The notes below the pieces were generated by a model. It was not told the origin of the DNA and did no database searches. It saw only the letters and a list, made by a program, of their open reading frames with translations. Made by a program: the position numbers and the translations under genes. From Candidatus Altimarinota bacterium (GTDB taxonomy: Bacteria; Patescibacteriota; Gracilibacteria; UBA1369), in NCBI GenBank assembly GCA_041659405.1, contig JBAZYK010000003.1, forward strand, positions 30,001 to 62,000: a stretch of 32,000 bases of DNA. The letters are read 5' to 3'. Shown here one piece after another: positions 30,679 through 30,712 of this stretch. Every line of letters starts with the position of its first letter. Position 1 is the stretch's first letter.

Positions 30679-30712
30679 CAATTACTAATTACTAATTATT
30701 AATTAAAAGGAA
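30679..30712 (+). promoter_or_regulatory. TAATTA-rich leader element upstream of rpsG (CCAATTACTAATTACTAATTATTAATTAAAAGGAA-ATG)
   Basis: Contains the same 16-mer as the dnaK leader. It ends in AAAGGAA, as does the tsaC leader (6977-6997, minus strand). Confidence 0.45.

Follow-up and report, generated by a model that had tools for sequence, protein, structure and literature searches.

Why should strings of A and T built around TAATTA stand immediately before the start codons of several genes in one genome? The question was raised by the string that precedes rpsG (30679..30712, + strand) in a stretch of 32 000 nucleotides from Candidatus Altimarinota bacterium (assembly GCA_041659405.1, contig JBAZYK010000003.1, positions 30,001 to 62,000), hereafter the window, which in our numbering is G000:C3:30001-62000. 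We consider it likely that in such strings this species has its own form of a translation-initiation signal, one that is active on the mRNA and distinct from the Shine–Dalgarno (SD) sequence. The genome (G000) comprises 1.51 Mb in 21 contigs, with 40% G+C and 98.5% completeness. The closest relatives of its ribosomal protein S7 (rpsG) are encoded by metagenome-assembled genomes all labelled Candidatus Peregrinibacteria, Peribacteria or Gracilibacteria, so that the source organism belongs to the Candidate Phyla Radiation (CPR) and uses the standard genetic code; it is an uncultured ultra-small bacterium (Peregrinibacteria). A total of 1324 genes were called by a codon-usage score (89% coding), taking the first ATG of each scored open reading frame (ORF) as its start, and leader statistics were computed over 1321 genes.

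The first-pass annotation, made from the window alone, had described the strings as ATTA-N-TAAT units. Genome-wide counts replace this unit by a 7-nt repeat, nnTAATT: pairs of TAATT cores were found 186 times at a period of 7 nt and 76 times at a period of 14 nt, with every other spacing between 5 and 17 nt occurring 12–30 times. The two variable positions of the heptad are mostly AC, AT, CT, TT or TA. Arrays of this repeat occupy ~102 distinct loci with two to four cores each, never more than four in this genome, and 80 of 103 array loci are intergenic in a genome with an intergenic share of only 11%. At 54 of the 102 loci the array lies no more than 30 nt upstream of a called start on the same strand, and about 10 further arrays precede uncalled small ORFs or ORFs starting with GTG or TTG, bringing the total to ~64 of 102. 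The exact 16-mer that the annotation had seen in both the dnaK and rpsG leaders (ATTACTAATTATTAAT, at 9796 and 30688) is indeed shared; of its 13 genomic copies, at least 10 are placed 4–24 nt before the ATG of a long ORF. The string common to the rpoC and ftsL-like leaders, TTATTAATTACTA, was likewise recovered; it has 15 genomic copies, each of them followed within 25 nt by a candidate ATG of an ORF of at least 60 aa.

The motif is strongly concentrated in front of starts. CTAATTA, ACTAATT, TACTAAT and similar heptamers are ~20-fold enriched between -30 and -1, and [CT]TAATT was found in 16.6% of the -30 to -1 windows, compared with 4.0% of intergenic windows at -90 to -60, 7.4% downstream of stop codons and 1.4% in coding sequence; the motif is thus commoner before starts than in other intergenic DNA. 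It is also strand-specific, ACTAAT being present ~65 times between -25 and -1 and its complement ATTAGT ~10 times. This orientation bears on one of the two functions suggested in the first-pass annotation, a DNA operator bound by a transcription factor of the AT-hook or homeodomain-like (TAAT-binding) type. TAATTA is a palindromic hexamer that contains TAAT, and the arrays are A/T-only, as an operator of this kind might be. However, the flanks, which are not palindromic, show strong strand specificity with respect to the gene, the position is fixed to the start codon and not to promoters (the dnaK array even lies downstream of the promoter of that gene), the signal is present within the upstream coding sequence of overlapping genes, and a 7-bp period would set successive sites on different faces of B-DNA. 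From these features of the motif itself, we find an operator hardly credible.

The distance to the start codon is equally constrained. The 3′ end of TAATT peaks at -10 to -8, with side peaks 7 nt away, and the distance between the last core and the start is bimodal, being 1–3 or 7–11 nt in 50 of 56 arrays, so that the array is phase-locked to the ATG. A simpler form of the signal is far more widespread. TAA, mostly as TTAA or CTAA (YTAA), ends at -13 to -10 in 623 of the 1321 genes (47%), compared with ~15% in control windows, and its ends were counted 144, 133, 176 and 174 times at -13, -12, -11 and -10, respectively, vs ~55 at neighbouring positions. When these 623 genes are aligned on TAA, a second T-A-A (45%, 57% and 43% at its three positions) appears exactly 7 nt upstream. 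Within the window, 19 of 30 genes have TAA at -13 to -10. No peak was seen at these positions for TAG or TGA. Because the four positions are about equally used and the other two stop codons show no peak, the signal is not a stop-codon or reading-frame effect, nor is it an artefact of choosing the first ATG after an in-frame stop. A stop-codon function of the arrays, whose 7-nt period puts TAA in all three frames, was considered and rejected: there is no 3-nt periodicity and no TAG or TGA peak, and the heptads of some relatives (CCCTACA) hold no stop codon.

Whether the signal belongs to transcription or to translation can be judged from the genes that it precedes. TAA at -13 to -10 was found in 51–56% of genes with a same-strand upstream neighbour, 0–10 nt spacers included (53–56% where this neighbour ends 0–60 nt away), in 34% of genes overlapping the one upstream (3% in the control window) and in 40% of divergent first genes, the control windows across gene classes giving 3–20%. 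Since operon-internal genes have TAA just as often as first genes do, it behaves like a ribosome-binding site (RBS) and not like a promoter. By this very distinction, GeneMarkS-2 tells non-SD RBS motifs (group B) from the -10 boxes that precede leaderless transcripts (group C) (bioRxiv 10.1101/193490). The genome shows the group B pattern, in which one non-SD motif precedes first and internal genes alike at a short, constant distance, and not the group C pattern of TAnnnT ~10 nt before operon-first genes only.

A group C interpretation, in which the motif would be a -10-like promoter element ~10 nt before the start of leaderless mRNAs, would account for the 3′ end of TAATT at -8 to -10, close to the place of the Pribnow box before leaderless genes, for the 6.6-fold enrichment of TATAAT between -30 and -1, and for those arrays that are TATAATT repeats. 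Yet operon-internal genes with spacers of 0–25 nt have the signal at least as often, it also occurs inside the upstream coding sequence of overlapping genes, and neither of the heptads TAATTAC and TAATTAT conforms to TAnnnT. The promoter of dnaK (+ strand), read directly from the sequence, consists of TTGACA (9712-9717), a 17-nt spacer and TATAAT (9735-9740), so the organism has canonical sigma-70-type promoter hexamers. The dnaK array lies ~50 nt downstream of this -10 box, within the predicted transcribed leader, and hence belongs to the 5′ untranslated region. No sigma-70-like site was found on the + strand in the spacers of rpoC, rpsL and rpsG, and none scored above chance in the rpoB–rpsG region as a whole. 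A promoter function of the motif therefore appears very improbable.

Conventional SD sites are nearly absent from the genome, as the first-pass annotation had assumed. The G content falls to 6–10% between -18 and -1, AGGAG occurs in 7 of 1321 leaders, and complementarity of at least 6 nt to the 16S rRNA tail is found in only 14 genes, although this 3′ tail is itself canonical (GGATCACCTCCTTTCT). TAATT is not complementary to the 16S tail and is no SD variant. Pairing of the motif with 16S rRNA was examined by comparing the 3′ tail and the trailer after it in six genomes. The trailer of this genome has AUAUUAG, which could pair with CUAAU, but relatives with other heptads show no compensating change, and such pairing was rejected as unsupported.

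By far the longest SD of the genome (GGAAGGAGGTGAT) lies outside the window, 7 nt before the ATG of a 68-aa ORF (G000:C2:106956-107162, - strand; L171:457-663). The ORF matches Pfam Ribosomal_S21 with 23.4 bits, below the cut-off of 27, and a profile built from six orthologues gave bS21 chains as its seven best PDB matches (best E = 7e-5); by this weak sequence similarity, it appears to encode a divergent bS21. The extended SD is kept in the orthologues of four related genomes (G001-G004). In a fifth (G005) the bS21-like gene has no SD and the 16S rRNA reads CCUCU instead of CCUCC, a single case. This distribution suggests an arrangement like that of Bacteroidia, with sequestration of the anti-SD and autoregulation of rpsU, and the combination of a canonical anti-SD that is kept, an SD that is unused and a bS21-like (rpsU) gene with an extended SD is that of the group B or Bacteroidia type. 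The bS21-like gene also qualifies a published finding that Peregrinibacteria often lack bS21 (PMC9297842). A published list counts 'Ca. Peribacter riflensis' among SD-scarce organisms (PMC10783764). The second-longest SD (GAAAGGAGG) belongs to a 252-aa pilin-like protein with an N-terminal methylation motif (G000:C6:68465-69223, - strand; L178), and AAAGGAGGTGAAAG was found in the long leader of a 153-aa ORF without Pfam match (G000:C3:~102038, - strand; L172).

Comparison with relatives separates what is conserved in the signal from what is not. In the closest relative (locus L002, S7 93% identical), the rpsG array differs by four substitutions but has the same position and register; the remainder of the rpsG spacer is unalignable and the rpsL leader is poorly conserved. 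A member of another genus with S7 80% identical (G001, 400 kb of a complete genome of 50% G+C) has no SD, G-poor leaders, a YTAA peak at -13 to -10 and a 7/14-nt periodicity of TTCTA and CCTAA. In a third lineage (G002, 343 kb), TAA also peaks at -13 to -10 (42, 33, 29 and 28 vs ~12), and CCTA, CTAC and CTAA cores strongly favour periods of 7 and 14 nt. The TAA peak and the 7-nt period were present when 56 Peregrinibacteria-like rpsG loci (376 starts) were pooled, while 196 starts from other CPR bacteria and other phyla showed no TAA peak, some having AGGA instead. The heptads themselves come in dialects: TAATTnn in this genome, ATTCTAC or ATTCTAA in G001, CCCTACA or ACTACAA in G002, and GTCTTTA or ATCTTTA at locus L016. 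With the peak and the period common to three genera and the flanks lineage-specific, what is conserved is YUAA near -12 together with the 7-nt register.

The arrays as such are far less evenly distributed. When 201 genomes belonging to the class were searched for TAATTNNTAATTNNTAATT, a pattern of three cores, 54 matches were found in this genome and 0–2 in 22 genomes of the same order. In other families the pattern was patchy, with up to 118 matches in one genome (G093) and none in its three congeners; in these three, rpsL and rpsG are tightly packed with no array between them, hence offering no orthologous leaders for comparison. Those arrays of other lineages that were inspected often end 2–5 nt before an ATG. 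Such patchiness is what might be expected of neutral or selfish slippage-prone repeats that are tolerated as G-poor, unstructured filler, in which structure matters and sequence does not; the very long TAATTTG arrays at contig ends of another genome (G121) and the weak structure of the leaders fit this explanation as well. Filler, on the other hand, does not predict a sharp TAA peak at -13 to -10 in three genera, strand specificity, a phase lock to the ATG, or an rpsG array that is conserved beside a diverged spacer, and the repeats of this genome stop at four units. We hold this explanation to be improbable. As for G121, its TAATTTG arrays reach at least 14 units at many contig ends (e.g. G121:C3:1-96 and C6:1-96) and probably break the assembly. 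In G126 (loci L128 and L136), TAATTnn arrays are found in pairs of opposite orientation, which may fold into hairpin cassettes. The 23S-IVS protein (PF05635) is absent from the genome studied here.

The genes that carry arrays form a recognizable set. Arrays are 17-fold enriched in the rpoC/ribosomal-protein cluster, where 14 of 40 genes have one, compared with 39 of 1281 elsewhere (p = 5e-11). According to Pfam, the array-bearing ribosomal protein genes encode S7, L4, S19, L16, L6, S5, S13 and S4, and further array-bearing genes encode RpoA, RpoC, EF-G, EF-Tu, DnaK, GrpE, GroEL, RRF and the hibernation factor HPF, enzymes such as GlmS, glutamine synthetase (GlnA), lactate/malate dehydrogenase and H+-pyrophosphatase, as well as FtsA, KhpA, YbaB and a ferredoxin. 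Seven genes of purine synthesis (purC, F, L, H, B, A and E) also have arrays. These are plausibly the most expressed genes, expression level being deduced from gene identity. The leaders of array genes are weakly structured: the region from -40 to +20 has a mean minimum free energy of -3.4 kcal/mol in array genes, as against -5.1 in the remaining genes and -8.9 in 60-mers of coding sequence. In E. coli, A/U-rich enhancers or standby sites that depend on S1 offer the 30S subunit a single-stranded, SD-independent foothold in the 5′ tract. The array leaders present the same feature, an unstructured A/U-rich tract 5′ of the start, but the E. coli sites have no defined repeat unit, period or fixed register and work alongside SD pairing.

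The coherence of this gene set can also be read in terms of a trans-acting regulator. The arrays would then be mRNA sites for an abundant cold-shock OB-fold protein (one molecule per 7 nt), the KH protein KhpA or a small RNA, through which a growth regulon comprising the translation apparatus, chaperones and purine synthesis would be tuned, repressed or stabilized together; this need not exclude a role in initiation. The 7-nt period equals the heptanucleotide footprint of CspB (PMC1904285; discussed in PMC4679880), the genome has one csp gene and a KhpA gene, the arrays concentrate in a functional set that includes the seven pur genes, and heptad dialects specific to species suit a factor that co-evolves with them. 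Moreover, deletion of heptamer repeats in Nostoc changed the regulation of a reporter (bioRxiv 10.1101/2022.06.06.494920). Against a regulator stands the single YTAA at -13 to -10 in about half of all genes, operon-internal ones equally included, which points to a general initiation signal and not to the mark of a regulon; the phase lock to the start codon, too, is more natural for an element that positions the ribosome. We consider a regulator of this kind unlikely as the explanation of the arrays. The pur genes nonetheless have some of the longest TAATT arrays (contigs C1, C2 and C5; e.g. C2:52885-55766, C1:167974-176000 and C5:25608-28484), and, judging from sequence, these could reflect co-regulation beyond high expression alone.

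The other function suggested in the first-pass annotation, a ribosome-recruitment or translation-enhancer signal, is thus the one supported by the sequence statistics: the element is locked to the start at an SD-like distance, lies in mRNA sense, precedes internal and overlapping genes, occurs in weakly structured leaders and is conserved across genera. In the mechanism that we propose, the core is UAA, usually YUAA (here YUAAUU), with its 3′ end 10–13 nt before the start, in the usual place of the SD. In what are probably highly expressed genes, this core is reiterated two to four times at a strict 7-nt period (nnUAAUU), with UAA at about -11, -18 and -25 in a G-poor, weakly structured landing pad. 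The arrays would supply several in-register copies of UAA together with a single-stranded landing pad, which in the ribosomal-protein cluster often comes directly after a very stable intergenic hairpin. We infer that the signal recruits the 30S subunit, or positions it, without help from the anti-SD, thereby raising or directing initiation; the ribosome, as in Bacteroidia, probably does not use its canonical anti-SD for ordinary mRNAs.

The reader of the signal may be bS1 or another component on the mRNA exit or platform side of the 30S subunit. The bS1 of this genome has 411 aa and four OB-fold S1 domains. By analogy with CspB, in which one OB-fold domain covers ~7 nt of single strand with a preference for G-poor sequence (PMC1904285) and so would rationalize the 7-nt period, bS1 is a plausible, albeit conjectural, reader of the heptads. 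The CspB consensus GTCTTTG/T, by contrast, is pyrimidine-rich and differs from TAATT, and there is no known link of CspB to the positioning of start codons.

Several observations weigh against an initiation signal. About 35–40% of array loci have no adjoining called start, and the gene starts are our own calls and not a curated annotation. A codon-adaptation proxy showed no significant difference between array genes and others (p = 0.07), so that the description of array genes as highly expressed comes from their identity alone. The leader of the bS1 gene itself has no array, and bS1 is generally considered poorly sequence-specific (PMC4679880). A scan of the whole 16S rRNA for complements of each genome's heptad revealed no common site. 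The bases flanking the core differ between genera and also within a genus, which a simple model in which the ribosome reads TAATT does not explain, and some arrays of other lineages precede -10-like boxes or form inverted pairs.

The first-pass annotation knew of no described motif of this form. This holds for nnTAATT in the strict sense, but repeated heptamers near start codons have been published, and non-SD RBS motifs are a recognized class (bioRxiv 10.1101/193490). The nearest relatives are the TAACTGA heptamer direct repeats found in marine Beggiatoaceae and in some Cyanobacteria and Bacteroidetes (MacGregor 2015, PMC4679880); their function is unknown, and the binders proposed for them are S1, Csp and CsrA (PMC4679880). 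Like the arrays described here, they are tandem 7-nt direct repeats in two to six copies, mostly placed a few nt before starts, apparently replacing the SD and found before ribosomal protein genes, and both heptads have the form TAA+N4. The period-7 tandem repeats of this genome, in sense orientation just upstream of a start at ~64 of 102 loci, conform to this description. Here, however, the heptad is nnTAATT with its last two positions freely variable, the host is a CPR bacterium, and the arrays are phase-locked to the ATG and elaborate a genome-wide single YTAA at -13 to -10 that three genera have in common. As only the TAA+N4 form is common to both, we regard the arrays as a variant and not as members of the same repeat family. 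In Nostoc PCC 7120, different heptamers in three to eight repeats lie within 30–100 nt of the start codons of sets of genes; they are suspected to act in regulation or translation, and what binds them is unknown (bioRxiv 10.1101/2022.06.06.494920). In contrast to the repeats studied here, their sequences are TTCAAAA and GACYAAT, and neither phasing to the ATG nor a genome-wide RBS-like signal has been shown for them.

Bacteroidia provide the closest parallel for the ribosome. In these bacteria the anti-SD is sequestered by bS21, bS18 and bS6 (PMC7797042, PMC9976891, PMC13000457), and initiation in Flavobacterium johnsoniae is stronger with A at -3, -6, -12 and -13, bS1 being postulated, but not shown, to be the reader of A-12 and A-13 (PMC13000457). 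Both systems combine a canonical anti-SD with an almost unused SD, a signal at about -12 or -13 before first and internal genes, weakly structured A-rich leaders and a bS21 gene with an extended SD. The AA of UAA, at -14 to -10 in Peregrinibacteria, falls in the place of A-12 and A-13. The system described here differs in that its signal is UAA or YUAAUU instead of isolated adenines and is reiterated at a 7-nt period, and in that the bS21 is so divergent as to remain below the Pfam cut-off and be recognized only by profile; moreover, sequestration of the anti-SD is known in Bacteroidia and is here a possibility suggested by sequence.

A literature search turned up no account of this motif, of heptamer leaders or of a UAA-type RBS in CPR bacteria or Peregrinibacteria. 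New here are the genome-wide UAA peak at -13 to -10 and its phase relation with the arrays, their conservation across Peregrinibacteria in differing dialects, and the link to a Bacteroidia-like arrangement of bS21 and anti-SD. The choice of start codons without SD pairing is only partly understood even in Bacteroidia, where the role of A-12/A-13 and bS1 is unresolved (PMC13000457), and three genera of Peregrinibacteria offer an unusually sharp, information-rich non-SD signal together with the hallmarks of an SD-blind ribosome. This would extend the Bacteroidia paradigm to the CPR and provides a start-site model that gene finders could use on these genomes. We also put forward, tentatively and with considerable doubt, a wider generalization: Peregrinibacteria, and possibly many other SD-poor lineages with heptamer leaders, may select starts by a sequence-specific UAA ~12 nt upstream in a 7-nt register, read by a dedicated component on the platform or exit side of the 30S subunit (e.g. 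the OB folds of bS1, one heptad each, perhaps with the divergent bS21), the flanking dialects (TAATTnn, TTCTAAA and CCCTACA) co-evolving with the reader. If true, TAACTGA-type (TAA+N4) heptamer repeats would reflect the same mechanism, and the unexplained start-codon heptamer repeats of several phyla would be tied to translation initiation in a testable form.

Within the window, all six sites listed in the first-pass annotation were confirmed in the sequence, each adjoining the start codon named for it, and Pfam supported its gene names for DnaK (HSP70), RpoC, S7, S12 and the Sua5/YrdC (TsaC-family) protein. The fullest arrays precede rpsG and rpoC. The rpsG (S7) leader (30679..30712, + strand) is intercistronic, 80 nt after rpsL, and has three full TAATT cores (30686-30690, 30693-30697 and 30700-30704) that put the 3′ ends of TAA at -25, -18 and -11 from the ATG at 30713. 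The rpoC leader (26145..26180, + strand), 51 nt after an ssb-like gene, has four TAATT cores starting at 26148, 26155, 26162 and 26169, with TAA ending at -31, -24, -17 and -10 from the ATG at 26181. In the dnaK leader (9789..9820, + strand), TAA ends at -18, -11 and -4, which preserves the spacing of the heptads, and one core is an exact TAATT (9801-9805).

The other three listed sites are simpler. The leader of the ORF in the ftsL position (3582..3611, - strand; CCCTAAATTATTAATTACTAGAA), which constitutes the entire 30-nt spacer between rsmH (RsmH by Pfam) and this 146-aa ORF, has its core at 3589-3593 and the TAA 3′ end at -10; the ORF itself, called ftsL-like in the annotation, has no Pfam match. 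The leader of the tsaC/Sua5-family gene (6977..6997, - strand) is a weak, single-unit form with one TAATT core (6986-6990) and the TAA 3′ end at -12. In the rpsL (S12) leader (30183..30218, + strand), one TAATT core (30186-30190) is followed by degenerate TAA-containing units ~6–8 nt apart, with the TAA 3′ end at -11. Two further leaders had been missed: that of grpE (8990..9012, + strand; TAATTTATAATT), with two cores (8992-8996 and 8999-9003) and the TAA 3′ end at -12, and that of an 86-aa ORF (16293..16316, - strand), also with two cores (16304-16308 and 16311-16315).

The grpE gene lies just upstream of the dnaK promoter, and farther upstream a 335-aa ORF is a candidate hrcA. The promoter is overlapped by an inverted repeat, TTAGCACTC-N9-GAGTGCCAG (9726-9752, + strand), which is CIRCE-like.

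The S10/spc/alpha ribosomal-protein cluster (G000:C3:56000-88300; from position 26181 of the window) has unusually long spacers of ~40–260 nt, most of which hold a heptad array and some also a hairpin, whereas in most bacteria these genes are nearly contiguous. The hairpins of this cluster are placed between a stop codon and the heptad array of the next gene. They belong to a family with ~20 copies in the genome (e.g. G000:C3:83891-83971), with folding energies of -45 to -52 kcal/mol and z of about -6 to -7; the apex CACAUCCGGGGUAGGGGCCCUGUGUG is conserved, the lower stems vary yet stay complementary, and the family lacks a U-tract and any match in Rfam. One intergenic copy in the window (25384..25475, + strand) reaches -52 kcal/mol (z = -7.4) and has no U-tract. 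These hairpins could be processing or stabilizing elements. Scans of the window found no Rfam family at the gathering threshold and no tRNA. Downstream of the hairpin copy at 25384..25475, a gene for a 215-aa SSB protein (Pfam SSB, E = 1.7e-34; 25482-26129, + strand) separates rpoB from rpoC, which are normally neighbours.

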